Origin: Haliotis rufescens
Taxonomy: Eukaryota
DNA: 64,000 nt
Assembly (NCBI RefSeq): GCF_023055435.1
Contig: NW_025964383.1
Coordinates: forward strand, 37,386,001 to 37,450,000
Reading direction: 5' to 3'
Of this stretch, positions 6,580 through 61,784 are shown piece by piece. A program made the position numbers and the translations under genes. How positions within the stretch are numbered: the stretch's first letter is position 1; the number at the start of each line of letters is the position of its first letter. A model generated the notes under the pieces. That model had not been told where the DNA came from. It saw only the letters and a list, made by a program, of their open reading frames with translations, and searched no databases.

Positions 6580-7717
6580 TGAATATATACCAAGACGTGA
6601 ACAAGCAGTTGCTGAGTTCTTGAAATATGCTTCTTATGATGGCCACGTCCTGTCCATGGGAATTCATGTGAGCTACCTATATGGTTCAAAGCAAGAAACA
6701 GACACTAAAAAGAAAAGAAAGAAGCGAGAACAAAAAGCTAATGAGTTGTTAAATAAAGTTTCAGCTTTGCGCAACTCAAACTCTGGGTCCATATTGATTC
6801 ATCTCGTTGGTTTAGCAAAAGAAGATCAGTTCACTGGTGCATTTAATGAGTTTGCAGATACCAAATTAAATTCGTTGATTCACGATGGAAAATTATTCGA
6901 TGATGTTTATAGAAAACAAAGATTAAGCAATCTTGAAGAATGTTGTGAATTCCATGATTTTCTAGTTCTGTTCGTGTCTGCAGCTTCAACTGTGACAACC
7001 TCCGACTTTAAAACCAAGGTTGCTCTTGATGACTGCATCCTAGACCCTACTGCTGAATCAGTCCGATCATTTCTGAAGGAAAGAAAAGTGTACAACAAGA
7101 CATTCCATGCACTTCCTGGAGTTGCCTCTACTTCTGACTTAGCAAACTTACAAGAAAGTAGATCAGTCCAATTCAAAAGTCACTTCTCACAGAAAGTCAA
7201 AGAAGATGAAGTAGTTGATTGCATCTCTTACAAACTTCGTCTCACGGAGTATGTAAGTGCGTTTTCCAAACTTGAAGGAGGGGGTTCTTTTTTGTATGGC
7301 ATACACGAGAAGAAGGTGACCCATGGTAATTGTGGTTATGATTCTAAGGAACCGATTCCACAGCCAGTAACCATCACTGATGAAAACAATTTCAAGGATA
7401 CACTAGCACAAAGGATACAGGAGAATACTCTTGTTTGTGACTATGATGGTGGGGCATCAACTGATGCTGATGTAGCACAGGTACGGTTAATCCCTTCAAG
7501 AACGAACCTGGACAAGAACACTCTGAGACTCACTGGTGAGGGAGAAACTGCAGATGCAAAAGAGGCGGTTGTTCAAGTATCCGTGAGGTCAGTGACAGGA
7601 ATAGTGTTCTATGATAAACAGGGACCATTGGCTTACAGGTATGATGCAAATACCGACGATGTCACGAGAATGAATGTCAAGGAATGGTTCTGTGCATTTA
7701 CTAGAACTAATGCCTAG
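6580..7717 (+). CDS. Schlafen AlbA_2 (RNase-fold) domain exon
   Basis: ORF 6554-7717 contains QESRSVQFKS...YVSAFSKLEGGGSFLYGIHE, matching the Schlafen/AlbA_2 signature ESxxVEFK...YxxAFANxxGGxLxxGV. Acceptor TTTCAG ends at 6579 and donor AG|GTAAGT follows 7757. Confidence 0.85.
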
Positions 7718-10700
7718 GATAAATCAACACACACATGCACAGGAAACAACAACGAAGGTAAGTACATGTCTATCAATATCTGTATACAAGAAATAGTCAA
7801 CTTCCTGATAGCTCTATCCCAGCTACGGTTTTAGTTGGATACACCTAACAATGAATGGACTTAATGCATGAGGCTGCCACATTAATATTCTAATACTCAC
7901 TGATAAACTAATTTTCGTTCAAAGATCTGTATTGATATGTGACCCGTTTTAATTCTGGAAAGCATTTCGTCCAGAAACTCTTCCCACTGTGACAAGTTTT
8001 TTTTATGGATGAACTAAACAAAGATGGACAATTGGTCCTCAATGTCACACACCCAGGATATATGTTGTAAACTTAAACATAGACCATTGGAAATCACAAG
8101 AGCTTTGAAATTCAAATAAACAAATAACAAATAACAAATTACAAATCGTAGTATTTGCACAAACACGGGTATGTAAATTCAAATGGGTCTTTCCCATTTT
8201 GCCATGATACTTCCTAATCTTGCGCATGGGGTTATACAACTTCATCCCTTGGTACAATACACTTACGTTCCATAACCAAGAATATCCAATATTCTTCCTT
8301 AGAAATGTAAAAGCTTAACTCGCCAGGAAAACACGACTCGCTGTTGGGTGGGTGTGAGACATTTATGACATTTATAAGATTCGGATATCCACATTGGTAT
8401 ACAGTATGAAGCACATTTGGGGTGTTCCCCGCCATAATGTGATGTAATATGGCTGAAAGTTGCGTAAAACCAATCTCACTCATCTTCAATCTCGGGAACA
8501 GCTTGATGGATTGAGCTGAAACACATTTAATATCCCCGCCCAAATGGGGTGACCCTTTCCTTCAAGACATCAGTTGAAAGTTTACATTTGTATTTACATC
8601 AAGACAAGTGATATGAGTTTTCTAATGAAAATAAAGATGCTTAATGCTCTAGTTTATGGAACTTTAGTGTCAAGTACCATAGGCTCAATTTCGGGGTCAA
8701 TATGTTGATGTCCGATGGGCAAAATGGGTAAACTCTGTGGGAATTATGTTTACGTGTAACTCAAAGTGACATCAAATACATGATTCTATATCTTTATTTA
8801 CATCTTTGTGTTAGTAAATTATAAATACATGTCTGAAGAGATAACCTGAATTTGAAATTCCATGAGCATAATCGACTGATATGTTGTCCTGAAAAACAGC
8901 CACAATGTATGATTAACTTCGTACAGAACAACTGACTGATATATCTTTCTTTTAGTCCACAGCATAAACAGTACTGTCACGAAAAAATGTGGAAGTTGTT
9001 GGTATGTATTGCATGTTCTACAAACGTTGGTTAATTGAGAAGGTGGCCAAGTGTTTTAGTTGTTGTAAAAAAATCTCATATGATGTCACGTTTATGGTCA
9101 CTATGCCGACATGTTTACAGTTTTTGCAAACTTAATGACAGTAGCCTGCATAAATATTTTAAGTATATATTGTTGATATTTTATGTTTAGAGTATTCTGA
9201 TTAACAAGTAAAGGATGTTCCCTCGATACGAATTCCTAACTTGGATTCCCAGAATTGTACTGATATGAAAGCGATGTTGACGCTTTCATTCCAATGACCC
9301 CACAGTACCGCAGCAAAACTAAATTACTTTAGTTCTAAATCAAGTACCAACCTTGATCTTATGGGCATGCTGGCACAGTAAGGCACAGTTGTGGAGGTTT
9401 ACAGCAGACGTTCAATGCATAATTATCATATTGTGTTCTAAACATTCAAATGAGCCACATATCAGCGAATGTAAACATTTGTAACGCACCTCTGCGCTGG
9501 TAGCTTAAGGTCACGCCCTCAAATGGGTTTGTTTTGGAAGTGGATTACGGAGGGTGTGATTTCAGCACTTCCACGTTGACATTTATACTTTCTATGAATT
9601 CATGAATTTTCTCTCTAGGAAAAAGATTATATGTACTTGTACATGTAGGAAAAATGATATTCGCAACAAAAATTGAATTTGATATTTTTTGTTCAGTTTA
9701 CTTGCCCTTTAAGGAAACATTTATATATGTTAATCTATATTTGGGTGGTTACATTAGGCGGGCTTAGACCAGGCAAACAAGGGCCGATATTGTATCCCAC
9801 AACCAGCATGCCTCTTATTGCTTATTATTTACTCCAGTGTCACCATAAAATCTAATAAATTTTTAAGAAATCTACCCTGTAAGTAGAGTTTATGTCTGAA
9901 TCAGTTTGTTCAAGACACATCTTATCATTTTTTTATTTAAGGTCCATCTAACACATTTAGCCAAATCTACACTATGACTAACTCAGATTGGTAAGGGCAA
10001 TTTGCAAGGTGACTCTCATTACATACCATGATTCCTTCTGTTTTCAAGAAACAAATCGTGAAAGAGGATGAGGGTAACTTCACTTTGGAATCCAATGACT
10101 TTTTTCGACCGAGCCTGAAGCAGATTGGAAACAGTGTCTTCGATATCAGGAATTACTACATCCCTCAAGGTATTAATTCAGAGTGTGTCTGTATCAACTC
10201 TTTACACAAAGAATTCGTGACATCAGAAATAAATTTGACCATTACCAACAATCAAAGTTGTGTATATGCAGATATCTGCGCCACATTCAAACGTTAATGA
10301 AACACACATATACAAGTATTTCTTATCATGACACAACATATTGCAATTTTCTTCTTCCCCTGTATATCACAGAGCCCAAAAGTTTACTCTCCTGCGATAA
10401 ACCTAGAAACTCTGCCACAGGCTACCGCAGCTTACACAGTCTAATCAACAACTTACAATATGTAAAAGGTCTCCAAATTAAGATAAACATATATCATGAA
10501 ATGATGAACCTTCATTACGAAAATATTCTAAAACAGCAGACATTGAAGCCGTATGGAGAGTTATCTGCCCTTGACTTTCCTTCTCATGGCACAAGAGGAT
10601 ACTCATGTGCTGGCGTTTTGGGAATTATTTCCTTCAACATCGGTCTCATAATGCGTTCTTGATGAAGGGAACTTCACAATTACCTTCCTAGTAGGTTACT

Positions 10701-43700: not shown

Positions 43701-46700
43701 GCTTATAAACAGTGAAAGTAGTCCCTACTTGACCTTTGATATTTGCATCTCTATCCGCATATGACACCAACGGATATCGTTTTTATCCGTTGGCTTTATC
43801 CTGCCCACCTATTATATGATAAATTAGTGTATCAAGATATATTAGATATCAATGAATAAACAATAAAATATATTTAAACACATATATTTAGGCTTACGAT
43901 CAACAAGGCAATACGAGTGGCAGCAAAAAACAGAAGCAGATCCTAGAATTAACGTAACAGAATATTTCCACTGTTGAATGTCTTAAAACAAGTCCGTCTG
44001 CGTTCTTGAACCCAGAACAGTGTTGGAAGCTCGAAGGTATTCGGTGTTTCCAAATGCAATCCTCAATTGGCAAGTAGATTAGAAACAAGTCAGGCCGAGA
44101 AGACCTCGAATCGCTCTATTGTCGCTTGTATAGGTATAGCCAGCCTTCTAGAAATTGTCCCTTCGGGAAACCTCTCAAACGATCAAGCCTGTCATGATCA
44201 TGTATACAACAAGGACATGAAGCTTTAACTTCTAGTTCAATACCAGTTTTGAAAGCTCCAAATCTGGCCATGACATCGCTAAAAGCAGAGTCCTCTGTAC
44301 GATTCCGACCACATTATTAAGGCCTTGAATGCTGTAACCATGATGAAAACTTCTGAGCAAAGGTCGTATGAAACTCTTTGAAATCTTCGTTGAAAGAGCA
44401 TGCTCAATTGAACCTCAATAGTTGCGGGGGCGGGGTAGCCTAGTGGTTCGATTCCCCTCAATTCTATGAGGCCTTTTACTTGTGTTCTCCGCCATGATTT
44501 TGCTGGAATATTAATAAAAGTGGCGTAAAACCATACCCACTCACTCAATAGTTGGGAAATGGATGTTGGATGTAGATGTCAAAGACTGGAATATTGCTTG
44601 ACATGAAAGGAAAGTTAAAAATTGGAAAGTTGAAGTCGTCCCTCTTGTAATGCAGTCTTAGTTTCTGTCACTCTGAATCTGTATGCCTGTATCTAAATAT
44701 TAAACAGATGGTACAATGGGACGTAAGATGAGGTGGACATGTTACGTTTGGTATCTGTTATTGACATATCAGACTTGAGTATTCTCCAAAGACAGGGTAT
44801 AACAAATTAAATCATCTTGTCGAACTCTCGAGTTCATTTCTACTTATCATATAGTTGCTGTAGAAGTACTAGCTTTGTATCAATGCGTGTTATGTATGTT
44901 ATGAAATGACAAAATCGTCTGTATTTATCAGCTGACGAGGAGATTCCTGCAAATCTGGTGGACGTGGATAAAGGGGATGACTCAGTGGTAAGGAGGATAT
45001 AGTTACTGTTCTTCCCAAGGTCGGGGTGATCAGTGGGAGGCAGGGTATGGTAATCATGTGTTTTTCATTAATCTTCATAGAATTAGTGATTCAGTGACAC
45101 GCACAGACAACAGAAATCTAGAGCTGGTCTCACTTTGACTTCATGCTTTCAGTCCTGGTTTGTCTGGTCGAGGCTAAAAAAGTAAATAAAGCAACAGAAC
45201 CCTTTCCATGTACAATAGAAATCTCTGCATAAAGCAGAGTTGTACGTTTCCGACTATATCATGAACATGTGTTTATGAATCACTATCAAATAGCAATGAC
45301 ACTAGGTGTTCGCCTAAAGGTGAGCATATCCTGCCCCACCGTTGGCACCTGTCACAGACACATAAAAAGTTGAGTCAATTGTTCACCTGACAAAAAACAT
45401 TAACATATGGTACAGGTCCAAGTACGGAATTGCATCATATTTTCATCTGATGTGTCAAATTTGGAAACGTCCTTTACATGTCTACTATAAAACATTGCTT
45501 AACTTACATTGCTGACTTAGATGGAGTCTTGCTGATTGCCTCATTCACTTGGAAACATGGAATTTTGTGATTTGTCCCCAATGTTGCAAACCCACTTATG
45601 TTAAATCCTTGAATGCAAATATGTTGGTTTATCTTGCATGCGATTACAGAGTAAACCACACGTGGACGTCCCACAAGCAGCTCCCAGCGCCCCTACGCCA
45701 CGAAGTGTGTCACCGCTGCCGTCACAACAGGTAGTAACACTGAAGTCACATTTCACCTCTCGCATATAAACTGGCAAATTATCGAAACACAATGTAAACA
45801 TTCACATTTCATTTATAAAAACTGCTTCTTCTGTTTTAGAATATATCTGAAGGAAGGGTGCGATCTTTCTTTCCCCAATCAAACCAATGCAAGGATTCGG
45901 GTACGTTACTTACATACAGTGTTTACAATGTAGTATCAAATGTCCCGATTTTGGTATATAGGATTCTCGGATCTTGTCATCGTATCCCAATTGCGTAGCT
46001 CGATGCTCATGATGTCAACCATTGGATTGTTTGGTCCAGACTCGATTATTTACAGTCCGCCGCACAGCTGGAATGCGGCGTTAAACAACAATGAATAACA
46101 ACAATTAATCAGAAAAGAAATTAATTACAAATTTATTACAATTATTTATTTGGTCTTACGAAATATTGTTTTTGGCATAAGGCACATTTCTTTTTCCTGT
46201 GAAATATAAACATCTAAATATTTTATGAAATTCATCGCTGATATCATCTATGTTACATAATTTCCTTGTTTTTTAAAATAAAAATAAGGTTGGTCTGGCG
46301 AGGAGAAACAGCAAGGCGGACATCTTTGATTGACCTAAACAATTCTTAAATATAAAGAAGTGATATGAAGTGATTATCAACACATCGATAATCGTCATTG
46401 ATTAGGAGTGTGAATTTTAAAAACACAGATATTACTGCTGACAGACAGACATTGTTTTATAAAGAACTTTAGACTAAAATATGCAGTACCCTTACAACAA
46501 AACACTCCTCCTGACATCTGTATCATGTGTCATTCAAAACAATATTGACAAAACGTGGCTGATTATTATTATATGCCATCGTCTTGCCTGATCTGCTTTC
46601 TGGCATATTTGAATATATTTGAAAAGGAATGAGTCGAACTGAATTCTATCAAACTGTTAGTGAGAGCTATGTCATAGAAGATACCATGCTCCATGGTCTG

Positions 46701-49700
46701 TTGTCTGTTTTGTGAATGTGTTACTGTAGACGTTGTCTCTATGTACTTGTGTACCATTGTATAACTAGATGGATCGAAATATCAGAGGTTTATATGATCT
46801 CAAAATGATACATTAAGTATACATTTTACTCGATCCAGCCGATGAGTCTGATTTGAATTGTCCCTGTGTAAGAAATACTTTCTTCAATTGTATTCCTGTC
46901 GTCCTCAAACAGTTTAATGATTTCCGTGGACTCGTTGCAAAATGTAGTTTCATGGCATGTAGAGTTTAATGTCAAGCTAGGCGCAGGATGCAGTTGGCAT
47001 GTGGGGAGTATTTGTCGTTCGCCTGTCCTAAGATGCAGCTGACGTGTAGGGTATAGTCGCATTGGCTAGATGGAGTCTGCAGCTGACATCTCAAGGTCAT
47101 GTACGTGGGCTGAATGTAGGATGCAGATGAGTCCTAGCGGATATTGACATGGCCAGGGTTAGAGTACAGTGTAGGTATTATTAATCCGGCCTATGTAAGA
47201 TGTAGCTGCCATGAAGAAGGTATTAGTTTGAGCCAGCTGTGGAATGTAACAGGATTATTGACATGGGTCAGGTGGGTGGTGTTGCTAACGTGTTGGGGTT
47301 ATTGGCGATGGCTGTGCTCAGAAATCTACTATAATTAATCGTATTAAGTTAGAGACGCATTAATTTCAAGATTTACAGTATTAGTTAATTATCAAATTAA
47401 CCTTTGCCACTTTTGGTGACACAGGTGACAATCTTAAATCATTTTGCAACTCATAAACATCTATTGATGATAAACCTATAACATTATATTAGCAACTATT
47501 ATTCAACCAATCAACATATGTTTAACTGAAACGTAATGGACTCAAAACATGAAGCCTGGCTCTATTTCTGTAAACATTTTGTCTGTGATGATTGCAAATT
47601 CCCTTAAAGATTCCGGAGACAAAGAAAAAGACGTGACGAAGACAGGGGACGTGGGGCCGATGTCAATACAGGTAACCATATAGTGGTTTAATATTCTGTT
47701 CTTCGAATATCATCCGACAGCTCTCACTGTACAGAAGCAGCCAATTATACCAGGGTGCATTTGCAACTTAATAACCCTATATACTTAACAGTTATATCTT
47801 ACAGTTATTAATGAATGGACTAATTATCTTCTTACTACAATACTAACGAACACTTTTCTCTCAGTTCCAGGATATGATGAAAAGGGCCGAAGGTGAGTCT
47901 GGTTGTTCTCGTTCTTGCTGATGTAATATTCCCCGCCACAGTGGGAGGGGACACAGGATTGAGTGTTGTTCGCCCCGCCTTCCGTGCGTCACGTTTTGTT
48001 TCCGGACGAAAACTCAAAGATCATTCAATATTTCTGTACCAAACTTTTCACAGATATCACAGAAAAGTTTGAAGTTTATATTTTATTCCGCTTTCATGAG
48101 CACAAATTGCACAGATATCAGTCAAGGTTTGAACTGGTGTCCTTTGCAATTCTGGAATGTTTTTAAGGGAAAAATCTTTCAAATTACAATTTAATGAGGG
48201 CTTCATTTCCATAGCAGAACTCATGAACCTTTGTACTTCCTCACTTATCAATCGAAAGGTGAACTGATTTTTAAGTTTAGGGAATTTTTCAACTGTGATA
48301 TTTTTTTAAACAAATGGAAACCCCATGCAATGTATCCAATAATAGGCACTGCTCCCTGTGGTGTTCTCGTAGTAACACCACCCTATTAAGATGGTTCAAA
48401 GTATCAGTCAGCTAGCAGCGTATCAATCAGTTTTGGATTCAGGGTCATTGACTGTATAGAACAGTTCCAAGTGCACGCATTTCTTTGTGGGTATAATAGA
48501 TGTAAACATAATCGCACTATGTTACCGAAACTGAATATGAAATGTTGATGATATAACGAAAAGTACACAAGTGAAATGTTTACAGCAAGAGTACTTTAGC
48601 GACAACGTTTTAATTTCAACGCGTGTTTTTTATATCTGTCCAATTTATCCAGAGCAAGTCATGGCCTGTTTGCCAGGTTATTCAAATTCAGAAATGTTCT
48701 TAGTGTGTTTAAGGCATCATGATCATCTTTCAACTTAGTTCATGTAGACATCAATGCAAAACCATGACACTATGTTATATATTTATGTTTATGTGTATGT
48801 AATAACTGTCATATGTTTGATAACAACAAAGTATTCATTTTCCTCAGATATGGACGAGTCTCATAGCAGTCACTTTGATGAGCCATCTATATCAAAGGTA
48901 GGATCAGTGTCACGTTTTGGTCAAATGATAGTAATAAATTCCCTAATAAGTTGATATTGTTGAATGGACAACTTGCAGACTTGTAAATCACATATCATTC
49001 CAGGGGACGTTGAGTGATGACTACACTGCAAGTCAAGAACGGGACATGAGAGCTGCAGAGACAGCTATAGGTAAGTGTGCAGCTTGACATGTATAGACAA
49101 CGTTCCTGGCTTGGAAGACACCAATGAACTAATGTCCGCAGTGACATGGCTTATAGTCAGCCATCCTGAACTAAACAGTGTTGAGAATCAGTGAATGTTT
49201 AAGGACTTGGACTGCATATTACATAGCATAGCATTACTTCTGGTTTCCAGAAGAGGATTACTGTCATTTACACAGGGAGTTACGAGAGGCAGATCCCGCC
49301 GGATCCCTCTGGTTTATTCTTGGAAAGATGTAATAGAGGCAGAGGATTCGCAAGAATTATCGAACAATAGTTATCATTGTTAATTATTCTCAGAATACTA
49401 ACTCTATTACATCAGAAGTTCTCCCTCCCACCTCCCCAATTCATCTACCTCTAGTGGTTAGATGTTGCAAAGAAGTGAGGTTTCCCGCCATATTCTAAGA
49501 ATTATTAACAATGATAACTATTGTATCGATGTTCCTGGCTTGAAAGACATCAATGCTCTAATGTCCGCAGTGACATGGTATATAACACTAAGCCTGAACT
49601 AAAAGTGTGAGAATCAATCAATGTACCAGGGAGTAAACAGCATATTACATTGCATTAATTACAATATCTGTTCCTGTTTCGACCCGAGCATGTATTGTGA

Positions 49701-52700
49701 CTGTGGAAAGTCAGCTTTCCATAATGGTAACGTGGGCTTTTACACAAGGTATTGGGCGGGGAAATTCCCTGAGGTATCTAAGCCCCACAAACCGTGACAT
49801 AAGGTGTCAAACAGTTTGAGCTAGTGCAGCCACACGTCCTATTGTCCCTCCCCATTATCAGTGGATGCGTTTATGTTATGAACGTATAGAATGTGTGTGG
49901 TTGTGTCCTTGGAATCTCAGACATACCAATGTAGCAGACATCAGTATCAATGTAGCAGACATCAGTATCAATGTAGCAGACATCAGTATCAATGTAGCAG
50001 ACATCAGTATCAATTTAGCAGACATCAGTATCAATGTAGCAGACATCAGTATCAATGTAGCAGAGACCAATACCAATGTAGCAGACATCAGTATCAATGC
50101 AGCAGACATCAGTATCATTTTAGCAGACATCAGTATCAATGTAGCAGACATCAGTATCAATGTAGCAGAGATCAGTATCAATGTAGCAGACATCAGTATC
50201 AATGTAGCAGACATCAGTATCAGCGCCTCTCACTCTGACCCTGTTTATATGTGGACTTCTCCTTCAGGTATTGCAGACATCAGTATCAATGTAGCAGACA
50301 TCAGTATCAATGTAGCAGACATCAGAATCAATATAGCAGACATCAGTATCAATGTAGCAGACATCAGTATCAATGTAGCAGACATCAGTATCGATGTAGC
50401 AGACATCAGTATCAATGTAGCAGACATCAGTATCAATGTAGCAGACATCAGTATCAATGTAGCAGGCATCAGCATCAATGTAGCAGACATCAGTATCAAT
50501 GTAGCAGACATCAGTATCAATGTAGCAGACATCAGTATCAATGTAGCAGACATCAGTATCAATGCAGCAGACATCAGTATCAATGTAGCATACATCAGTA
50601 TCAATGTAGCAGACATCAGTATCAGCGCTTCTCACTCTGACCCTGTTTATATGTGGACTTCTCCTTCAGGTATTGCAGACATCAGTATCAATGTAGCAGA
50701 CATCAGTATCAATGTAGCAGACATCAGTATCAATGTAGCAGACATCAGTATCAGCGCTTCTCACTCTGACCCTGTTTATATGTGGACTTCTCCTTCAGGT
50801 ATTGCAGAGATCGCCGAACAAGAGAAGAGGTTGCTGACCTTAGAGGAGGTACAATTTTCTATACCACAGTGGATAAATTCAAAGTACATCCGTATCAAGT
50901 TCAAATGATTCATAAACAATCTCTATATTTTTGTCACAATATTTTATACATAATCTAATTGTATAACCAACGACTAAGTAAAGACAGTTTGATAAAGAAC
51001 AATATGTCACTATCGACGTTTATGAATATGAATGGTTTGAATGATTTTTCCGTGTATTTTAAGGAACAAGACCATCAAAAACGACACCTTGATTCGCTGT
51101 ACTGTGGTACGTATCACACTAGTGCACGGGTTATACATCTCTATAACATGTTGCCACAGACGGCTGGAATCTGTGGATAAACATACCTACACCTGGAGTT
51201 TCAGGGTTGACCAAACAAATATCCAAATGGACTTGAGGAAATCATGAATTGAGAACCAATAACTTACATTAAAATAATTACATTGACGTGCACAGTAATA
51301 TAATCATAATATCGTTAAAACAACATCAACAACACAAGTGAAAATGAAGCGTTTACAGATATGCACACAGATATAATATTGACTCATATCACACAATCCT
51401 GTGTCTCTCGTATTATATGATCCTTTGTGATTCGTGAGACAGGATTCATAGTGGCTCGCATCACATGATTCATAGTGGCTCTCATCACATGATTCATAGT
51501 GGCTCTCATCACATGATTCATAGTGGATTGCATAACATGATTCATAGTGTCTCGCATTACATGATACATAGTGGCTCTCATTACATGATTCATAGTGGCT
51601 CTCATTACATGATTCATAGTGGCTCTCATCACATGATTCATAGTGGCTCTCATTACATGATTCATAGTGTCTCGCATTACATGATTCATAGTGGCTCGCA
51701 TCACATGATTCATAGTGGCTCGCATTACATGATTCATAGTGGCTCTCATTACATGATTCATAGTGGCTCTCATCACATGATTCATAGTGGCTCTCATTAC
51801 ATGATTCATAGTGTCTCGTATTACATGGTCCATAGGGGCTTGCATCACATGATTCATAGTGGCTCGCATTACATGATTCATAGTGTCTCGCATTACATGA
51901 TCAATACTCGTGGTGTTTCTGATGTTGTTTTGCCATCGCACATCACTTTGACAACTTGCATTGTACAAACCCCCTTGCATTGTACGGACAAATAGATCTG
52001 AAATGGCACACGCAGGTCACGAACACTTCCGTCTAAACCTTAACCACAATTATCAAGAATATGTCATCTGACTTATCTTGTACCTACAGACCTTCCTCAT
52101 GAGTGGCTCATCAAAGTGCACTACCTACAGAGACACCAGGATGTGTTGTCCCTGTGCGACGTGCAGCTGCCGGAAGTCATCAGTGTGAGTCGGCATTCAT
52201 ATTTATTGATTAAGATCAGAGAGGCACTCCTCTCCTCTACCAATGAACCCAATCAACAAACCTTTCTTCTAAATAAAGCAACAAAACACTAAAATCAAAA
52301 GAAATCTGTCCAAAATGCTGTGTCTGTATCATAAGCATGAGTAAATGAATCACTATCAATTAGTGATGATACATACAAGGTGTTCGAAATTGTTCAGCAC
52401 AGGTATAACCTGATGAACCTACTGCTGACAGTGAACCTGTAACACGTGTGTATTGTGTATGTGTTTCATACACAAGAAGGCGCTCGGCATTTTCAAGTTA
52501 CATATAGAACTCACAACTCTGATTCATATGAATATGTTTTTAAAGTAATGTGTATAAAAGGTGAAAATTTAAATATGGCTTACAATAGCTATAATGGCAT
52601 AATATCACACAGTAAACGAATTTAAGGCACACAAAACATCACACAATTCTGATAACTTCAATATCTCGCACAATAGTGCCTATGTGTACATACATTCTCA

Positions 52701-55700
52701 CACTGAACTGATTGTTGACATTGCGAGCGATTCTCATTAATAAGTATGTGCATATATTTATATCTGTATCTGAAATAATTGCAGGAGATGGTCAGACCCG
52801 GACCTTCCCTCATCCAGACAGCCAAGTTAGAGATTTCTCCAGGTAAGACTCATCATACTCAATGTTCATCCTACCCGTGAGTGAATTTGAACGCTACTTC
52901 GAGCAGTATTTCAGTTATATGAGGTCGTGTCAGCCTGATGTGGGAGGAGGTGAGGCAGATGTAAGCACGTTTACCACTTTGGCTGAACCAACAAGAACGA
53001 GCCAAGAATCATTATTCGGAGCTCTAGACGACTGGTCCGCCCGGTGCGATAATCGATCAAACAAGACATTCAGTCCTGTTGTCAAAATCTGAAAACAACT
53101 GCATCGAGTGTTCCGAGTCGCGGTGTCAGTAATGTGTGTTTGTGTGTGACCACTTTGATCTGATTGATCGCCGCCTCCATGCCTTCCAATAGCATCTGAA
53201 TTTTAGCTAAATGAGGAACTGTCCGATCATGACAGTCCAAGAACCTGTATATATCGGGAAACTGCAGGATGTGGTGTATTGACAACACTGAGCAGGGCCT
53301 GTATATATCGGGGAACTGCAGGATGTGGTGTAATGACAACACTGAGCAGGACCTGTATATATCGGGGAACTGCAGGATGTGGTGTAATGGCAACACCAAG
53401 CAGGACCTGTATATATCGGGGAACTGCAGGATGTGGTGTAATGGCAACACCGAGCAGGACCTGTATATATCGGGGAACTGCAGGATGTGGTGTAATGACA
53501 ACACTGAGCAGGACCTGTATATATCGGGGAACTGCAGGATGTGGTGTAATGACAACACTAAGCAGGACCTGTATATATCGGGAAACAGCTGGATGTGGTG
53601 TAAATGACAACACTGAGCAGGACCTGTATATATCGGGGAAACTGCAGGATGTGGTGTAATGGCAACACTGAACAGGACCTGTATATATCGGGGAACTGCA
53701 GGATGTGGTGTAATGGTAACACTAAGCAGGGCCTCTATATATCATGAAACTGCAGGATGTGGTGTCACTGGCAAGGTAAAGTGACGTGGACGTCATTTTT
53801 CGATGGAGGGAAGTATGTGGCCGATGTAGTTTTTGTATATATTTGTTTTAATTTCATTTTAGGTTTTTACGTATATTTATCATATATAACTAGTTGTCCG
53901 TTTCAGTCAGCTATAACAAAGTGTATCTGACCTGTCTTACCTACTAACTGCCCCATGGCCAGAAGCTTCATTTGCTGATTGGCCAAGCTAACACCTATTG
54001 TTAAACTGCATGCTTTGATTACACTGCATACTCTCTCAGCACATAAACTGACAGAACTGCTCAGACCAGCAAAGTGTAAAGAGAGAATATTAAATCAGGT
54101 GAGTTAAATGGTTATAATCTCTATCTTGTGTTGTATTTAAATAATACAGTATGTTCAAAGTGTTATATGAAGTAAACTAAATGTATGTAATCTAACATAA
54201 ATGTTGATTTATGTCTAAATATTTAAATCTGCATAGGATAAGCTAAACATCCATACTTTATCACTAAAATGTATTCTATCACTTCAATGAAATATGTGTG
54301 AAAGTGTTTTACCTCAAGAGTGTTTTAATAAGCTTTGTAATGTAGAGATTTAGATGTGATACAATGCAAATCATTGTAAAGAAAATGTGTGTATTACTTT
54401 GTTCAATATATTAAATGTTAAATAGTGTTTTAGTCTATGTATTGTTTATTCAGATAATCTATGGTGTTGCCATATAGGCAGTTGGGATCCACACCCTTGT
54501 ATCACCCACAGGGTATGCATTGTGTTATTTATATTTGTCTAAGACTTACAATGTAATCTAATTGTGATAACCACATTTAATGTAATATCATATCATTAAT
54601 TTCTGTCTTAAAGTATTGTATATGTTTATGCAGAATGTGTAAGCGTTATGCATTTATATTATGTATATATATTGTGTATATATTATAGTCAAATGAAAGT
54701 CAAGGAGTTATCTCCCTTGAATGTCGGTATTGTTGATCATGTACATACTGTATATGTTCTAGTATAATCGTTTAAGGTTCAGTCTATCTTGTGTTTAATG
54801 GATGACTAATATATGTAAATAATTACTTGTAATACGCCTATGCTATGTATCTAGCATTAATGATAATGTTTTACTTAGTATTTATTGTGTTATTATGTGT
54901 TTCAGGGTGTATGATATATAGATCCTTTATCACACTCGACGCATCGCAATAAAGACCTCAACCCCGTAGCATGTGTTTGTTCGCTATAAAAAGACCTTCA
55001 CTAAACTGCTACATTAACACCTAGCATGACCTGTATATATCGGGGAACTGTCGGATGTGGTGTAATGTCAACACCAAGCAGGACCTCTATATATCGGGGA
55101 ACTGCCGGATGTGGTGTTATGGCAACACCAAGCAGGACCTGTATATGTCGGGGAACTGCCGGATGTGGTGTTATGGCAACACCAAGCAGGACCTGTATTT
55201 ATCGGGGAACTGTCGGATGTGGTGTAATGGCAACACCAAGCAGGAGCTGTATATATCGGGGAACTGCCGGATGTGGTGTTATGGCAACACTAAGCAGGAG
55301 CTGTATATATTATGAAACTACAGGATGTGGCGTTATGGCAACACTAAGCAGGGCCTCTATATATCAGGAACTGCCGGATGTGGTGTAATGTTAACACCAA
55401 GCAGGACCTGTATATATCGGGGAACTGCAGGATGTGGTGTAATGTTAACACCAAGCAGGACCTGTATATATCGGGGAACTACAGGATGTGGTGTAATGGC
55501 AACACTAAGCAGGACCTGTCTATATCCAGGAACTGCAGGATATGGTGTAATGGACGTCCAAAACATGTACTCATGGACTCGGGTCAGGTGATCAAGCACA
55601 ATACGATCGATTCTGTCATCATTCAAGTACTGGTCCATATGGCTGACATGATGAGGATTTGCGTAGTCACCAATGATAATGAATGTACATGTCGCAAATG

Positions 55701-58700
55701 TCATCCTTGAAGGGAACAGCTGACCCACTTAGCAACGTTAGCCTCCTGATACCATTGCGCAACACCCGACCACGAGGTTCTGTGAAGTTGGTTGGTTGGT
55801 TGTTTTTTTACGGCGCACTCAGCAATATTTCAGCTTTCTGACGGTGGTCTGTAAAAAATTTAGTCTGGACCAGACAGTCCAGTGATTAATATCATGAGCA
55901 TCAATCCACGAAATTGAAATCGATGACGTGCATGAAGCAAGTCAGTGAACCCGACCATCTGATCCCGTTTGTTGCCTCTTACGATAAACATAGTCGCCTT
56001 TTACGGCAAGCATGGGCTGCTGAAGACCTATTCTACCCCGGATCTTCACGGGTCGGTTCTGTGAACTCAACTAGAGAAGAAAAAAGGGGACCAGTCAAGC
56101 ACCGTCCAGTTGGTGTTATCTTAACACCAGGCAAAACGGGCCCGTGTATGCCAATCAGTTGTATGGGATACTTGATCTGGAGGAACGAAGATCTCCTTGA
56201 AAACACATTGCTTGTCTTGACATGTTTACTGGTGTGGCTTACGAGACTGTTTGCCGGCATGAACGGATGTCTTCAGCAACCTGTCCTCCCACTGCGTTGA
56301 GGACTGCATTGGTTGGAAACGATTCCATGCTCTGCAGCACGTACAGCATTAAGTTGTGATATCACACTGTCAAGCATACTAATATAGCAAGCATTGTTGA
56401 TGTAGAATATTTGTATACACATTGATTTCCTTTCACGCACAGTGCGTGAAAGCCAAAATTAATGCGTGATGGGTTACCAAAATACGGTCAAGTTAAAGTT
56501 TGATAATCATGTTGTTGACCAATATATGTGTTGTCCTAAGCAAACCTTGAGTGCCACATCCCAATGCTAATAATTGCCATATTTGTATAAGGATTCTATC
56601 TATGTGATTCAGCTTCTTCTCTCTACCCACAATGCCATTCTATATTTTATCAGAAGATAAAATCCACCAGAGGCCTGTGAAGAGAAGTCAGATTGCCAAA
56701 CTGAGGCGGTTTCAACAGGGGTTGCTGAAGGAGAGTGACTTGTTTGACATCATAGGAAACGTAAGAAGACATTATCTTATATCTATTTATATCCAGTGGG
56801 GCCCATTTCTGATCTTTCGCCTTGGGTTAAGTAATAGAGCAATGCAGTGTGGCTCATCTCTTAGGATTACTACATGTCTTTCTTCAGGGGTTAAATAATA
56901 CAGCAATGCAGTTTACCTCAGCCCTTAGAATAACTCCATGTCTTTCTTCAGGGGTTAAGTACTACAGAAATGTGGTATGGTTCACCCCTTTTGATTACTC
57001 CATGTCTTTCTTCAGGGGTTAAGTAATACAGCAATGCAGTGTGGTTCACCCCTTAGGATTACTCCATGTCTTATTTCAGGGTTTAAGTAATACAGCAATG
57101 CAGTGTGGCTTACCCCTTAGGATTACTCCATGTGGTACGCCAGGGTTTAAGTAATACAGCAATGCAGCGTGGGTTATCCCTTAGGATTACTCCATGTCTT
57201 TCGTCAGGGGTTAAGTAATACAGCAATGCGGTGTGGTTAACCCATTAGGATTACTCCATGTCTTACTTCAGGGGTTAAGTAATACAGCAATGCAGTGTGG
57301 TTCACCCCTTAGGATTACTCCATGTCTTTCTTCAGGGGTTAAGTAATACAGCAATGCGGTGTGGTTCACCCCTTAGGATTACTCCATGTCTTTCTTCAGG
57401 GTTTAAGGAATACAGCAACGCAGTGTGGTTCACCCCTTAGAATTACTCCATGTCTTTCTTCAGGGTTTAAGGAATACAGCAACGCAGTGTGGTTCACCCC
57501 TTAGAATTACTCCATGTCTTATTTCAGGGTTTAAGGAATACAGCAATGCAGAGTGGGTCACCCCTTAGAATAACTCCATGTCTTATTTCAGGGTTTAAGG
57601 AATACAGCAATGCAGAGTGGGTCACCCCTTAGGATTACTCCATGTCTTACTTCAGGGGTTAAGTAATACAGCAATGCAGTGTGATGTATGCTGTTCTCTC
57701 TGTATGCGATGTGGTTTGTATTTGGCTGTTTGATTGAGAGGGGTTTATATCCTCTATCTTCAACTATCTATCATCTGCCTGTGTGAGTTGTGCTGTATTC
57801 ACTATCTTAATTCTGCAAGTGTGAGACGTGCTGTATTCACTATCTTTATTCTGCCTGTGTGAGTTGTGTTGTATTCACTATCTATATTCTGCCTGTGTGA
57901 GACGTGCTGTATTCACTATCTATATTCTGCCAGTGTGAGACGTGCTGTATTCACTATCTATATTCTGCCTGTGTGAGTTGTGTTGTATTCACTATCTATA
58001 TTCTGCCTTTGTGAGACGTGCTGTATTCACTATCTATATTCTGCCTGTGTGAGACGTGCTGTATTCACTATCTATATTCTGCCTGTGTGAGATGTGTTGT
58101 ATTCACTATCTATATTCTGCCTGTGTGAGACGTGCTGTATTCTCTATCTATATTCTTTCTGTGTGAGAGGTGTTGCATTCACTATCTATATTTTGCCTGT
58201 GTGAGAGGTGTTGCATTCTCTATCTATATTCTTCCTGTGTGAGATGTGTTGCATTCACTATCTATCATCTGCATGTGTGAAATGTTTTGTAAATCGCTAT
58301 CAATATTCTTCCTGTGTGAGATGTGTTGTATTCACTATGTATATTCTGTCGGTATGAGATATATTGTATTCACTATCTATATTCTGCCTGTGTGAGACGT
58401 GCTGTATTCACTATCTATATTCTGCCTGTGTGAGATGTGTTGTTATCACTATCGACATTCTGCCTGAGTGAGATATGTTGTATTCACTATATATATTCTG
58501 CCGGTATGAGATATGTTGTATTCACTATCTTTATTCTCCCTGTGTGAGATGTGTTCACTATCTATATTCTCTCTGTATGAGACGTGTTGTGTTCACTATC
58601 TTTATTCTAGTCGTGTGAGATGTGTAATGTTCAACGTCATTGATTTGCGGGTTTGAGTGAGGGTCGAGTTGTAATGACTATCTGTTCCTACCCATGCCTT

Positions 58701-59532
58701 GTGTGTCTTCACTCTGGCTGTGAGAGAAGTGTTTAGTGTGACATGTGTTATCTTCGTCCTGTGTCATGTGTGTCTTCACTCTGCCTGTGTGGGAAGTGTT
58801 TAGTGTGACATGTGTTATCTTCGTCCTGTGTCATGTGTGTCTTCACTCTGCCTGTGATAGAAGTGTTTAGTGTGACATGTGTTATCTTCGTCCTATGTCA
58901 TGTGTGTCTTCACTCTCCCTGTGTGGGAAGTGTTCAGTGTGACATGTGTTATCTTCGTCCTGTGCCATGTGTGTCTTCACTCTGCCTGTGAGAGAAGTGT
59001 TTAGTGTGACATGTGTTATCTTCGTCCTGTGTCATGTGTGTCTTCACTCTGCCTGTGTGGGAAGTGTGTAGTGTTTTCTTTTTAGTGTTTCCTGGGTGAA
59101 ATGTGTATCGGACTCACTGTTTTCAAACTGTCTGTGTGTTATTGCCACTCCCTGCACATTTATATACTCCTATATATAACTCACATATATTATAATAAAC
59201 CTATGAGCACGTGTTTGGTGCTGACAAATCAATGGATCGTGCCTGGCAAAGAGTAACCGAACTGGTTTTATCTTCGACCTTTTGGAAACCCATGCTTCAG
59301 TGGAGAACATGGACTTGTTATAAAACAATTCAGGTCAACGAGTATGTCAAGATTAGTTAGCCAAAGAACATCAAATTCAGGATACTCCATTATGTGAGAC
59401 CACGTTGCACAGATACATTATACAATGATATTATTTGTGTGTATCCTTGTACATAAGACACTAAACTCAACTCTTCTACTTTCCCTGTTCAGATGATTGT
59501 CGATGAAGAAGACCACCTCGCCTCTTTACAAG
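6580..59532 (+). CDS. Multi-exon Schlafen-like gene (AlbA_2 + SWADL-like + degenerate P-loop + repeated helical modules); carries a premature stop, 5' and 3' ends not determined
   Basis: Manually assembled GT-AG exons: 6580-7757, 19723-20497, 20662-20792, 21448-21494, 21746-21788, 22549-22634, 24042-24099, 24294-24397, 24522-24570, 41941-41970, 42093-42178, 42421-42454, 44932-44987, 45840-45900, 48848-48897, 49004-49070, 50799-50848, 51064-51106, 52090-52184, 52785-52842, 56654-56760, 59493-59532. Every junction is phase-compatible. The only stop in this model is TAG 7715-7717. Confidence 0.7.
12105..13821 (-). mobile_element. Non-autonomous Helentron/HINE (pearl/DINE-1-like) element with central satellite array
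   Basis: On the minus strand: 5' hairpin TTATGTCTCCCC...GGGAGACATA (13791-13821), GTC-rich microsatellite, tandem array, matching sub-terminal GGGAGACATATG (~12133-12145), palindrome GTTTTTACGAGTAAAAAC (12116-12133) and terminal CTAGTT. Confidence 0.75.
12278..13738. repeat. 172-bp tandem repeat, about 8.5 highly similar copies
   Basis: The motif ACCACTTCAGTGCT recurs at 12281, 12453, 12625 and onward, a 172-bp period. Confidence 0.95.
13978..16933 (-). pseudogene. LINE ORF2 (AP endonuclease + reverse transcriptase), frameshifted
   Basis: Starts MNTLTFFFINVCGL at 16933 and is split over ORFs 15649-16710, 14973-15830, 14537-14935 and 13978-14460. The catalytic YADD reads YAND. Confidence 0.9.
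16958..18082 (-). CDS. LINE ORF1 (coiled coil + L1-ORF1/Transposase_22-like RRM and CTD), 374 aa
   Basis: First ATG at 18082. A heptad-rich region is followed by NNLIFTGIDE...VHRLG...PRPILVAF...GINEHFP...RR, typical of LINE ORF1p. Confidence 0.85.
   Translation of the reverse strand: MALATHSDYNPSDRYRDYQPDLQYLQQHHRQIQQQLHSEQAIQVSSQNSASLPLLEGNHPPAWASHLISEIKNLSQITHGIASRTSDIEAKVSVIDKRSEQIDKIQERVKNIDINILTLNQSVQHTVHRVSNIETALTQLSMKVDKTKSTGEENASVDRLEGKLDECHDELDYLHGRLHQVSDQNYELKEQLLTVQCKSLENNLIFTGIDETEEENVEVKAQNVIENNLKIAKSIELEKVHRLGKKRSDQIKPRPILVAFTSKRDRDIVKSQGHKLKGPSVGINEHFPYEIQQRRKQLWHRYKQAKSNGHKTSFIRDRLYIDGKRIYPDSTPDIDPNVDFPALPSDREPPSSLTPTHNRPEKKARYNSDRQTSD
18560..19150 (+). mobile_element. Decayed DIRS fragment (RNase H / methyltransferase region)
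   Basis: The frame starting at 18731 reads ARHIPGISNVVADVRSR...PTE...IDLGAA**NHQLPVF, matching DIRS HIPGxxNVxADxLSR and IDLFA...NxQLP. A possible RT remnant (FSFGLAP) at ~11280 may belong to the same interrupted copy. Boundaries are approximate. Confidence 0.55.
19723..20792 (+). CDS. Schlafen linker (SWADL-like) and helicase-N exons (19723-20497, 20662-20792)
   Basis: GVVFISQSLAPVLDIP...GHVICDAFIALPG resembles the SLFN11/13 G-x-x-I-x-SRSWAVDL...GVICDALLI region. FLTREQ...GPGTGATT sits at the Walker A position and VIVDE (Walker B) is in the next exon. Splice phases 1/2/1 are consistent. Confidence 0.8.
21448..24570 (+). CDS. Six small exons encoding helical module 1 of the Schlafen-like gene
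   Basis: Exons of 47, 43, 86, 58, 104 and 49 nt with canonical AG/GT and alternating phase 1/0. Translation IQEELANLKMRTTAMK-DVDTVKGQVDALES-DECQSQINFLFEEMDVLRLF...-ELDRKKK...LSP-VCGGRD...DVLDSIKE-FLVEDKILIGYFQTTI is open. The donor at 24100 (GTGATA) is weak. Confidence 0.7.
22186..22456 (-). mobile_element. SINE-like interspersed repeat (same family as 55787-56054 and 45977-46092)
   Basis: Clearly alignable over ~270 bp with 55787-56054. Has a simple-repeat (AAAC)n tail and a TAAGAGGCGACTAA core on the minus strand. Confidence 0.75.
22890..22973 (+). mobile_element. Minimal tRNA-derived retroposon (tRNA-like head + (CCTCA)n tail) with 13-bp TSD
   Basis: A-box TGGTCCAGTGG, anticodon-like stem TCCGC-CCAGAGA-GCGGA and degenerate B-box GGTGTGATCCC. 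Flanked by CCTGATATCGTTA at 22877-22889 and 22974-22986. Confidence 0.8.
24817..28378 (+). mobile_element. Decayed DIRS1-type retrotransposon, copy B
   Basis: ITRs of ~180-210 bp (24817-24997 inverted at 28167-28378) and an ICR at ~28008-28100. RT remnant DWFISLDLKDACLHVTIH, MT-like AFPPW...IAPIWPSRAW and YR remnant ATAASVSEFHA...FVAKNQ. Confidence 0.85.
25077..25320 (+). mobile_element. Short HINE/pearl-like fragment nested in DIRS copy B
   Basis: (GTCC)n microsatellite followed by one diverged monomer related to the reverse complement of the 172-bp repeat (ACACATTAACC...GTGCCTTTTGCTA...CGTTTCCATGG). Boundaries are approximate. Confidence 0.6.
28502..41321. repeat. 12.8-kb compound satellite: ~37-bp core ACTGAGTGTGTAACAGGTTACACCACGGTCTACACTG separated by variable (CACTA)n
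   Basis: Directly visible throughout the interval. It contains higher-order segmental duplications, e.g. an offset of 2858 bp between ~35500-36790 and ~38360-39650. Confidence 0.98.
41941..49070 (+). CDS. Middle small exons (charged, probably disordered linker) of the Schlafen-like gene
   Basis: Exons 41941-41970, 42093-42178, 42421-42454, 44932-44987, 45840-45900, 48848-48897 and 49004-49070 have pyrimidine-rich acceptors and GT(A/G) donors, and the frame stays open. A further candidate at 47610-47671 does not fit the frame on its own. Confidence 0.6.
43162..43301. repeat. Foldback inverted repeat (MITE-like), ~54-bp arms
   Basis: TATCACGCGAGTGTGTTTAGGGATGGTTAATATCCTGTATTAGGAATAAACATT pairs with AATGTCTATTCCTAATACAGGATATTTACAGTTCCCAAACACACAAGTGTGATA. 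Confidence 0.7.
44424..44547 (+). mobile_element. Internally deleted tRNA-derived SINE
   Basis: A-box GGTAGCCTAGTGG fused to B-box GGTTCGATTCCC, followed by a GCTGGAATATT...GGCGTAAAAC body and an (ACTC)n tail. Confidence 0.65.
45977..46092 (+). mobile_element. Partial SINE copy (family of 22186-22456)
   Basis: TCCCAATT...GCTCATGATGTCAA...GGATTGTTTGGTCCAGACTCGATT is the reverse complement of part of 22186-22456. Confidence 0.65.
49241..49524 (+). mobile_element. 3' fragment (ICR + shortened right ITR) of the DIRS copy B family
   Basis: Aligns with ~27929-28185 and ~28343-28378. Confidence 0.8.
49921..50810. repeat. 21-bp minisatellite (GTAGCAGACATCAGTATCAAT)n containing three copies of a splice-acceptor cassette
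   Basis: Direct observation. The cassette CGCTTCTCACTCTGACCCTGTTTATATGTGGACTTCTCCTTCAG|GTATTGCAGA has its AG ending at 50267, 50669 and 50798. Confidence 0.95.
50799..59532 (+). CDS. Six small exons encoding helical module 2 of the Schlafen-like gene
   Basis: Exons of 50, 43, 95, 58, 107 and 40 nt with the same phase pattern as module 1. Translation IAEIAEQEKRLLTLEE-EQDHQKRHLDSLYC-DLPHEWLIKVHYLQRHQDVLSL...-EMVRP...ISP-EDKIHQ...DLFDIIGN-MIVDEEDHLASLQ is open. It ends in phase 1, so the gene continues. Confidence 0.7.
51440..51902. repeat. 24-bp minisatellite (ATGATTCATAGTGGCTCTCATTAC)n, about 19 copies
   Basis: Direct observation. Confidence 0.95.
53240..55553. repeat. 57-bp minisatellite split into two blocks (53240-53765, 55028-55553)
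   Basis: Unit GACCTGTATATATCGGGGAACTGCAGGATGTGGTGTAATGGCAACACYAAGCAG lies on both sides of a unique insert. Confidence 0.95.
53763..55030 (+). mobile_element. Solo-LTR-like ~1.27-kb insertion
   Basis: Begins TGTCAC and ends ATGAC, is AT-rich, has AATAAA near the 3' end (~54948) and interrupts the 57-bp array. No TSD was seen. Confidence 0.45.
55787..56054 (-). mobile_element. SINE-like interspersed repeat (second full-length copy)
   Basis: Aligns with 22186-22456 and has a (CCAA)n tail on the minus strand. Confidence 0.75.
56820..57681. repeat. 64-bp minisatellite, about 13 copies
   Basis: Unit TTCAGGGGTTAAGTAATACAGCAATGCAGTGTGGTTCACCCCTTAGGATTACTCCATGTCTTTC with period 64 (57271 to 57335). 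Confidence 0.95.
57765..58625. repeat. 38-bp minisatellite, about 22 copies
   Basis: Unit CTGCCTGTGTGAGACGTGCTGTATTCACTATCTATATT. Confidence 0.95.
58700..59074. repeat. 67-bp minisatellite, about 5.5 copies
   Basis: CTTCACTCT recurs at 58707, 58774 and onward. Confidence 0.9.
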
Positions 59533-60659
59533 GTGAGTCCTCCTTGTTTACAATGTTCGTGAATGTCAGCTACTGCTAATGCGTGTTGACCTCATTGCGT
59601 GGATATTGAATCTGTAACGATTCGTCTGTTAATAAACTGTCTTAATTTATTAATTACATTAAGTAATACGTTACCACTTGTTATACCAAGGCTGTTGTCT
59701 CCCACAACTGCTCTTATAGCGAAATCTACTATAGAGATCTCAATTACCTCATGCAGCACGTGCGTAGCCATCTCAGTTGCCATGTGACACCCTTCACTCT
59801 TGTCTCTTCGCTTGCTCCAGCAAGACGTATAGTGACTGCTCTGAAGCGTTCCTGTTTCTCCAACCTTTGGTGTATTTATTACTGTTTATTGACTCATATA
59901 AACTGTGCTTTTTTGTGGGCGTTTGCTGTAACTACGCTTGGAACCCGCCAAAAGGAACATTTTTCCTCCCTTTTTTCTATATACTTGCGGGGTGTCTCCT
60001 ATGCACGTTGCGTCTTACGTTCCCCTGTAATAGTATGTCTTGGGGGTTTACATCACTTATTTCTCTATATGCTATATGTGTATGTTCTATATTCGCAATG
60101 CTCATTTATTTTCTTGTGAAAATGTTCGTTTGTGAATATTTGTGGTGCGTGTGTTGTAACCATGTTTTACTCTTTGTTCATAGTAACAATGTCGGACAAT
60201 GTCGGACATGGACATGTCGCCATCCTCAACCCCCTCTACCCCCTCTAATTCCTCTCTTCTCGGGATCCCCACGATCGTTGCCCGCGGTGCAGGGTTCCTT
60301 GCGGGGACACCCGATGCGCCCTGTGCGGGGGTCTGAGGCGTTGAGCGCTACAGTCTGTACTGCATTCTGTTTCCACCCCTGTTGTGGCCGGCTCGTCCGG
60401 TCGGGGTCCCCTTGCGGGTACCACCTCCACGGCTGCAGGGGATCCCTTGGCGGCCCTTGGGCTGTCCGGGGATTCTGTCACAGCATTACTTTCTCAACTT
60501 GTTGACTCCAAGCTGGCGGCCTTATCTCGGGATAGGCCGCTGGCTGTTCCGTCCCCGGCTTCTTCAGTGGCCGCGGGGTCCACCGGTCTAGGGGTCGGGT
60601 CCTTCTTCCAGGAAGAAGCCCCGCTCTGTGGGCTCCGGTAAGGGCAATCAGCCGCCCTT

Positions 60660-61490: not shown

Positions 61491-61784
61491 TGATTGACAA
61501 AGTCTTAGCGGTGCAACAGACAGTTCACTTTTGGGAACAGCTGTTAGGGCTACTTGTGTCAGCCCAGGACTGCACCAAACAGGGTCGTCTCCAACTCCGC
61601 CCGCTGCAACGGTTTCTAATCCAGTTGTTAGCACAGGAGGAGAACAGTGCATCCGTCGCCCTCCCAGATTGGCTCCGACCGCATCTGGAGTGGTGGACGG
61701 TCCCTTGCAACGTCTTATCAGGAGTCCCGGTGTGCGGAACGTACTGGCAGACGCGCTGTGGAGGCCTCGGGATCCGAGCCCCAC

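Follow-up and report, generated by a model that had tools for sequence, protein, structure and literature searches.

A Schlafen locus of the red abalone with its core and linker halves in separate reading frames of a single spliced RNA

The locus and its exons

The stretch of DNA analysed in this work (the window) comprises 64,000 nucleotides of the Haliotis rufescens genome, and between its positions 6580 and 59532 the forward strand carries a real multi-exon gene with GT-AG introns, as had been proposed from the sequence alone. That sequence-only reading counted 22 exons joined in one open frame and encoding a single giant protein; the span holds 27 exons (the RefSeq model mapped back onto the DNA plus exon 6580-7757), the frame is closed, ahead of the donor at 7757, by an in-frame TAG (7715-7717), and this conserved stop parts the core from the remainder, giving two predicted proteins. 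The gene exceeds the window at both ends, a coding exon lying 5.4 kb upstream of it and the terminal, SPRY-like exon some 18 kb downstream. Exon 19723-20497 is 100% identical to the RefSeq gene LOC124124991 of H. rufescens (P0008), whose longest isoform (P0046, 1071 aa) maps onto the window as 26 exons with GT-AG ends, from 8963 to 59532; exon 59493-59532, which the earlier reading had also listed, is a true exon. The start of this model lies 3' of the AlbA_2 region, and no entry for the exact product of the ORF1 exon of this gene was found in the protein collection. RefSeq names both halves as unrelated uncharacterized proteins, and in this way a two-ORF Schlafen family is masked by automatic annotation. 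The features of the locus are the following:

G000:C605:37380514-37380602 (outside the window): first coding exon of ORF1, M..CxxC..HxxC, 89 coding nt, phase 2
6580..7717, + strand: second coding exon of ORF1, with the complete Schlafen core (AlbA_2); from Pfam, profile and contigs
6668..6983, + strand: minor alternative GT-AG intron within ORF1; joint in X1 and X2
7715..7717, + strand: TAG stop of ORF1, at the end of the core; from the sequence, contigs of X1, X2 and X3, and paralogues
7718..7757, + strand: opening 40 nt of the 71-nt inter-ORF spacer, with one ATG (7735) in the ORF2 frame; donor GTAAGT at 7758
8956..9001, + strand: start exon of ORF2, with a second acceptor at 8963 and the conserved ATG at 8987 (MWKLL); joint from 7757 to 8956 in 4/4 RNA-type runs
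10049..10169, + strand: ORF2 exon, start of the linker-like region; from RefSeq mapping and contigs
19723..20497, + strand: ORF2 exon with the Schlafen linker (SWADL/GTPase-like) and a Walker A that has no lysine; from profile and model
20662..20792, + strand: ORF2 exon with the Walker B-like IVDE, where the Schlafen-derived part ends
21448..24570, + strand: helical module 1, six exons (21448-21494, 21746-21788, 22549-22634, 24042-24099, 24294-24397, 24522-24570)
41941..49070, + strand: ten small exons making up a charged low-complexity spacer (41941-41970, 42093-42178, 42421-42454, 44932-44987, 45650-45730, 45840-45900, 47610-47671, 47865-47892, 48848-48897, 49004-49070)
50799..59532, + strand: helical module 2, six exons (50799-50848, 51064-51106, 52090-52184, 52785-52842, 56654-56760, 59493-59532)
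G000:C605:37467760-37468434 (outside the window): SPRY-like terminal exon of ORF2

The first exon of ORF1, which encodes a putative zinc knuckle, was joined to 6580 on the grounds of phase, of homologous RefSeq proteins and of an equivalent GT-AG joint at the paralogous locus L065; the joined frame has 408 codons and no internal stops. In the first coding exons of loci L063-L067 and L070-L072, and in P0054 and P0055, the two halves of the CxxC..HxxC motif are parted by repeats of about 25 residues. The AlbA_2 domain announced by the sequence-only reading is recognised by Pfam (PF04326, E 5e-9, 37.1 bits, cut-off 25.3), and with a profile built for ORF1 (65 relatives) every PDB match is a Schlafen core (14/14; SLFN11 residues 19-335, E 6e-21); the vertebrate zinc-binding cysteines are absent from this profile. 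The catalytic motif of the focal protein, ESRSVQFK, keeps the first Glu and the Lys, and has Gln at the position equivalent to E214; the full set E209, E214 and K216 of nuclease-active Schlafens is therefore incomplete. Among the 65 relatives, the first Glu and the Lys are each present in 62 and the downstream Glu in 63, and the E214-equivalent position is Gln in 45 and Glu in 16 (one or the other in 61). At the loci where a core is paired with a linker exon, the second catalytic Glu is Gln in 26/34 and is kept in 8/34. According to PMC9482658, Schlafens without one of these three residues are nuclease-deficient, and a single active site per dimer is enough in SLFN11. From its residues, the focal copy may be a weak nuclease, or a silent subunit in a mixed dimer. 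The alternative intron 6668-6983 takes a sizeable share of the contig depth in X1 and X2; its loss shifts the frame, ORF1 then stopping after 32 codons of the exon, and it could truncate ORF1 in such a way that the core is switched off and the downstream exons are kept.

ORF2 starts at a conserved Met (MWKLL, ATG 8987), 71 nt past the stop on the spliced RNA, and continues for 1035 codons; the extra in-frame ATG at 7735 lies ahead of this Met. A SWADL-like linker had been suspected in exon 19723-20497, and a profile of 18 paralogous big exons agrees with it: all of the PDB matches (9/9) cover the Schlafen linker-to-Walker A region of SLFN5, SLFN11, SLFN12 or SLFN14, the best being SLFN5 (E 9e-9). 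The focal protein alone gave no significant Pfam match in the linker region, and PF21026 was found in 5 of 12 distant paralogue exons with E up to 1, all below the cut-off. The structural model of this exon has a pLDDT of 84.9. The Walker regions described earlier stand in part, given that a Walker A region and a Walker B-like IVDE are present, but Walker A reads GPGTGAT in the focal gene and has no lysine in its subfamily. About 17 residues after IVDE the sequence becomes helical; the absence of a second RecA domain 3' of Walker B, already pointed out by the first reading, was corroborated, and the complete SF1 helicase with an intact Walker A of group III Schlafens is not found in this protein.

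The tandem helical modules, also foreseen, are a true duplication (hhalign probability 96%, E 2e-9; three control pairs at 3% or less), each having six exons with matching phases. The idea that they replace the helicase sensor was abandoned, as the modules form a stalk to a C-terminal SPRY-like domain that lies outside the window. This end matches PF00622 with E 0.005, below the cut-off, and PDB entries with E 0.001-0.5 (Atlas 0.86-0.87), the nearest PDB and Atlas matches being MID1, TRIM25, TRIM14 and TRIM16; no RING or B-box was matched by Pfam in P0046. In some other ORF2 proteins the linker is present as two or three tandem units, and other ORF2 ends are a STAND NTPase with ankyrins or an AIG1 GTPase. 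In P0001-P0007 and P0012-P0021 two or three tandem linker/pseudo-ATPase units stand behind a single core ORF, and we speculate that such a chain of linkers might be a scaffold for a core dimer. A complex prediction of ORF1 with the ORF2 exon, run without alignments, scored 0.00 and was counted neither way.

The introns are rich in repeats. A satellite of 12.8 kb (28500-41320) makes up most of the intron that separates the two halves of ORF2; further satellite or repeat arrays lie at 12278-13737, 49927-50753, 51439-51901, 53243-53765, 55016-55553 and 56824-59074, and a 64-bp tandem repeat at 56824-57683 is the source of an alternative last exon used by RefSeq isoform X3 (839 aa), a form that has no SPRY-like domain. 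Inside intron 10170-19722, a LINE-type element occupies the minus strand at 14000-18270, with a coiled-coil ORF (16961-18271), an endonuclease (15652-16716, PF14529) and reverse transcriptase pieces (14540-15851). Broken retroelement copies are present on the plus strand at 59650-63970 (inverted ends 59662-59805 and 63824-63967; RVT_1 at 60642-61487) and at about 25250-27760; from the appearance of their frames they are perhaps DIRS-like, for which Pfam gave no confirmation.

The conserved stop and the shared spliced RNA

The AlbA_2 frame ends at the TAG 40 nt 5' of the donor at 7757. In the contigs the splice path runs from 7757 to 8956-9001, then to 10049-10169 and to 19723; the joint from 9001 to 10049 appears in three runs, and in X6 the letters of a loose end at 10169 match the beginning of exon 19723. 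An unbranched X2 contig (record 14, 973 nt) extends from 7022 to past 10169, across the stop into ORF2, and an X1 contig (record 7, 1054 nt) starts at 7590 and is long enough to reach far into exon 19723. Contigs enter the ORF1 exon at 6580 carrying 59-155 upstream letters. The link between 7757 and exon 19723 that had been proposed for checking is thus present on spliced RNA, by way of two small exons; the direct join is in phase, as had been stated, but it contains the stop, it is absent among the joints and loose ends listed for four runs, and the contigs insert 8956-9001 and 10049-10169 at this point. The TAG is retained in the three contigs that cross the stop (X1, X2, X3), all differences between contigs and window being at other positions, and the bridging contigs are nearer to the focal gene than to its nearest paralogue (1 versus 8, 9 versus 33 and 5 versus 35 differences). 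Intron cover is nearly absent (e.g. 7959-8285); the RNA nature of the runs was taken from spliced joints and empty introns rather than from run records, and the bridging evidence consists of contigs, in which rare forms are dropped, and not of single molecules.

The RNA of the focal gene therefore has the order ORF1 (408 aa), a 71-nt gap and ORF2 (1035 aa). The position of the stop corresponds to the core/linker boundary of SLFN11, in which the core comprises residues 1-353 and the linker residues 354-576 (PMC9482658), so ORF1 ends at a domain boundary. From these results we conclude that a group III-type Schlafen is here split where the core meets the linker, its two frames lying on one spliced RNA; core, linker and helicase are not in one polypeptide.

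The same arrangement was found in the L065 subfamily, which is about 50% identical to the focal gene. One X1 contig of 1372 nt goes from ORF1 through to the linker exon, and in X6 and X11 GT-AG joints connect the post-stop donor with the start exon, leaving a spacer of 47 nt. With about 90% identity to L065, these contigs come from close members of the cluster. The RefSeq ORF2 models P0027, P0030 and P0032 start within the ORF1 exon and use the post-stop donor. Both ORFs are in this manner on one spliced RNA, by bridging contigs and GT-AG joints, in two subfamilies, the only ones for which shared splicing of core and ORF2 was seen.

A profile search of the red-abalone genome yielded at least 115 core matches (at least 105 loci after merging) and at least 76 linker-exon matches, some of which are second units of one gene; these counts are lower bounds, and 107 of 136 candidates were scored in the core search. 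An upstream core ORF on the same strand lies within 45 kb of 74 of the 76 linker exons and within 15 kb of 68, compared with 13 that have a core downstream and 3 that have one on the opposite strand. Conversely, a downstream linker exon follows 65 of 105 cores, and when 12 of the 40 unpaired cores were sampled with a broader profile, seven had a linker exon within 10 kb. The locus can still be described as a lineage-expanded invertebrate Schlafen in which repeated helical modules accompany the core, the linker and a half helicase. Two genomic matches to the Schlafen linker family PF21026 above the Pfam cut-off (G000:C24:15793170-15793433 and C35:26033180-26033443) fall outside the 76 and are possibly other Schlafen types.

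All 34 distinct core ORFs stop in the genomic frame 1-8 codons past the end of the profile, using TAG (15), TAA (10) or TGA (9), and no common context follows the stop in these 34 ends. None of 49 ORF2 proteins has a core, and one of 93 core proteins has a linker. The dN/dS values relative to the nearest paralogue (0.42 for ORF1 and 0.30 for the ORF2 exon; 0.14-0.57 in unsaturated pairs) indicate that purifying selection acts on both ORFs. The split does not hold throughout the family, as shown by donor-like sites before or over the genomic stop in 14 of 45 core ORF ends and by an annotated fusion (P0073, at L083, G000:C48:93500-103499) of core, short linker and an apolipoprotein L-like domain (PF05461, E 7e-12), the donor of which lies 5' of the genomic stop; at L027, which like L083 is one of the 14, the annotated protein reads on exactly to the stop. 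A search among 7999 candidates for longer fused core proteins (799-2280 aa) found none, a weak negative. The trees of ORF1 and ORF2 share 19 of 31 splits, with no strong conflict; since physical linkage predicts agreement, this was not taken as evidence of binding. ORF2 proteins are named from four Haliotis species, and stand-alone cores occur also in Littorina saxatilis and Batillaria attramentaria.

Three further observations concern other loci. In the 23 Mb cluster an apparent overlap of stop and start (TAATG) was not retained, because an inferred intervening exon of 38 nt would hold the stop. At L094 (G000:C101:20527200-20537199, minus strand), the linker exon of a core-linker pair is followed after about 5 kb by frames for RING and B-box, which are part either of ORF2 or of an adjacent TRIM gene. 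P0100, a core homologue from a 3-kb contig assigned to a Sulfurovum metagenome bin, has gastropod proteins as its relatives here and is likely host DNA in the bin.

Probable synthesis of the second protein and proposed role of the pair

Our preferred explanation, which we regard as somewhat better than an even bet, is that two proteins are made from the shared RNA, an RNase-type core and a regulator-sensor, and that they act together in innate immunity. ORF2 would be translated from the long RNA by termination-reinitiation 71 nt past the first stop, across a short, A-rich, unstructured spacer; its linker would dock on the core in the manner of the linker within SLFN11, and the SPRY end (elsewhere STAND-ankyrin or AIG1 GTPase) would sense infection and control the core, which would then cut or bind tRNA or rRNA. 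The focal spacer is 49% A and unstructured, and core-containing contigs are the sole form observed in the runs examined. The start Met of ORF2 is conserved and the frame ahead of it varies between paralogues, some of whose splice sites were taken from the consensus for this comparison. As described in PMC10275272, reinitiation after a long ORF is found mainly in viruses and retrotransposons, usually with a dedicated signal. Near the abalone stops the UGGGA motif is not enriched (2/34 versus 6/34 in a control window) and no folded RNA element was detected (z from -1.5 to +2.1); the combination of UGGGA with a stop/start overlap that marks TURBS is not found. The core exon holds 34 ATGs, which rules out simple leaky scanning. 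With leaky scanning and readthrough of the stop (see below) set aside, reinitiation on the long RNA or separate isoforms are left.

It is possible, though we think it unlikely, that the two proteins come from separate isoforms, the long RNA giving ORF1 only and ORF2 being made from an RNA that skips the core or starts at an internal promoter. In H. rubra, RefSeq isoforms P0011 and P0052 join the zinc-knuckle exon directly to the ORF2 start exon, skipping the core, and the same skip would be in frame in the focal gene; moreover, reinitiation past long ORFs is rare in cellular mRNA, and the 34 ATGs block leaky scanning. However, the X1 and X2 contigs pass the 8956 junction unbranched, at L065 the joints listed (15 of 16) for four runs include none that connects the zinc-knuckle donor with the start exon, and the distance from acceptor to ATG varies across paralogues (31, 29/22, 23, 5, 24 or 6 nt), so that the skip is in frame only in some. 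It is an established rule, stated here in general and not for molluscs in particular, that an mRNA with its stop upstream of many junctions is targeted by nonsense-mediated decay (NMD). If ORF2 were untranslated, about 27 junctions would lie downstream of the stop and the long RNA should be an NMD target; reinitiation, which lets mRNAs escape NMD (PMC10275272), would explain its escape.

A further reading concerns function and is compatible with a shared mRNA: the pair could be co-expressed without any nuclease-regulator relation, the core being a silent RNA-binding protein or the two proteins being independent. The Gln that replaces the second catalytic Glu in most paired loci, the Walker A without lysine and the absence of the vertebrate zinc cysteines from the core profile speak for it. 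Nevertheless, we find it doubtful, given that the first Glu, the Lys, the downstream Glu and the Gln/Glu choice are near-invariant among the 65 relatives, which suggests constraint on the active site, that eight paired cores keep the Glu, and that one active site is enough for an SLFN11 dimer (PMC9482658).

That a single long Schlafen is produced by readthrough or recoding of the stop is very improbable: the join from 7757 to 19723 would be in phase and P0073 is annotated as a true fusion, but all three stop codons are used and the context following them is not shared, the spliced spacers that RNA or RefSeq supports (71, 47 and 53 nt) are not multiples of three, and that join is absent among the joints listed. 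Scarcely any weight is given to the stop being an assembly error, a null allele or the mark of a decaying pseudogene in a fast-turning tandem family, some of whose transcripts use the frameshifting alternative intron, because three runs, from two studies, have contigs that retain it and it lies at the same place in 34/34 paralogous ends, with both frames intact and dN/dS well below 1.

An immune role of the core with its regulator-sensor is plausible, and is suggested by the Schlafen family, the sensor-type ends and the tandem expansion; in mussel, Schlafen-annotated transcripts are reported to be induced by Vibrio (PMC7772429). A bolder version, which we put forward tentatively, is that the abalone has about a hundred operon-like immune modules, in each of which one spliced mRNA would give both a Schlafen nuclease core and the inhibitor-sensor belonging to it, the ribosomes reinitiating past an ORF of 400 codons, and to which interchangeable sensor ends (SPRY, STAND-ankyrin, AIG1 GTPase) would be wired. 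If this were true, the nuclease would never be made without its regulator, and the arrangement would resemble an animal version of the toxin-antitoxin or anti-phage operons of bacteria. Few animal mRNAs have two long, conserved ORFs of related function. Schlafens as such, members with the core alone, Schlafen nucleases of several chains in invertebrates and dicistronic mRNAs are already known; in full-text literature searches, which returned mostly titles and the beginnings of abstracts and did not include subscription papers or supplements, we found no Schlafen family described as split or dicistronic. The restart of ribosomes past a long ORF in cellular mRNA is an unsettled matter for which dozens of paralogues with varied spacers constitute a direct test set; the split at the domain boundary is a natural experiment on the control of the nuclease by the linker, and more than 100 loci with immune-type sensor ends are a candidate for work on disease resistance in abalone.

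Comparison with known systems

The abalone locus shares with group III Schlafens (SLFN11, SLFN5, SLFN14; PMC9482658) the core, a linker with a SWADL-like motif and the order of Walker A and B, and profiles of both halves match these proteins. In contrast, it has two ORFs instead of one chain, its helicase ends after Walker B, its Walker A has no Lys, the E214 equivalent is Gln and the zinc cysteines of the core are missing; in addition, it has an N-terminal CxxC..HxxC exon and, at the C-terminus, helical modules and a SPRY-like domain.

At the level of the RNA, caliciviruses and influenza B with their TURBS, and the retrotransposon SART1, also have a long first ORF and a second functional ORF close behind it on one RNA (PMC10275272), whereas the abalone genes are a spliced cellular family in which stop and start are apart, by 47-71 nt where supported, and in which neither the TURBS motif nor a fold was found.

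With regard to the domains, TRIM immune proteins of the B30.2 (PRY-SPRY) type have a helical stalk followed by a C-terminal SPRY domain, and ORF2 has a stalk that leads to a SPRY-like end; unlike them, ORF2 has no RING or B-box, its N-terminus is a Schlafen linker and its SPRY match (E 0.005) is below the cut-off. Vertebrate group I Schlafens such as mouse Slfn1 and Slfn2 consist of the core only, and ORF1 resembles them in ending where the core ends; in the abalone, however, the linker half lies directly downstream on the same RNA and is under selection.

A parallel for separate chains in an invertebrate is the PUCH complex of Caenorhabditis elegans, in which TOFU-1 and TOFU-2, together with SLFL-3/4, are distinct Schlafen-domain chains, some without catalytic residues, and TOFU-2 carries a SPRY domain (PMC10567574). 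The abalone pair would likewise combine separate chains with a SPRY-like domain; but PUCH is formed by single SLFN domains and processes piRNA precursors, whereas ORF1 of the abalone is a whole vertebrate-type core whose partner is the linker half.
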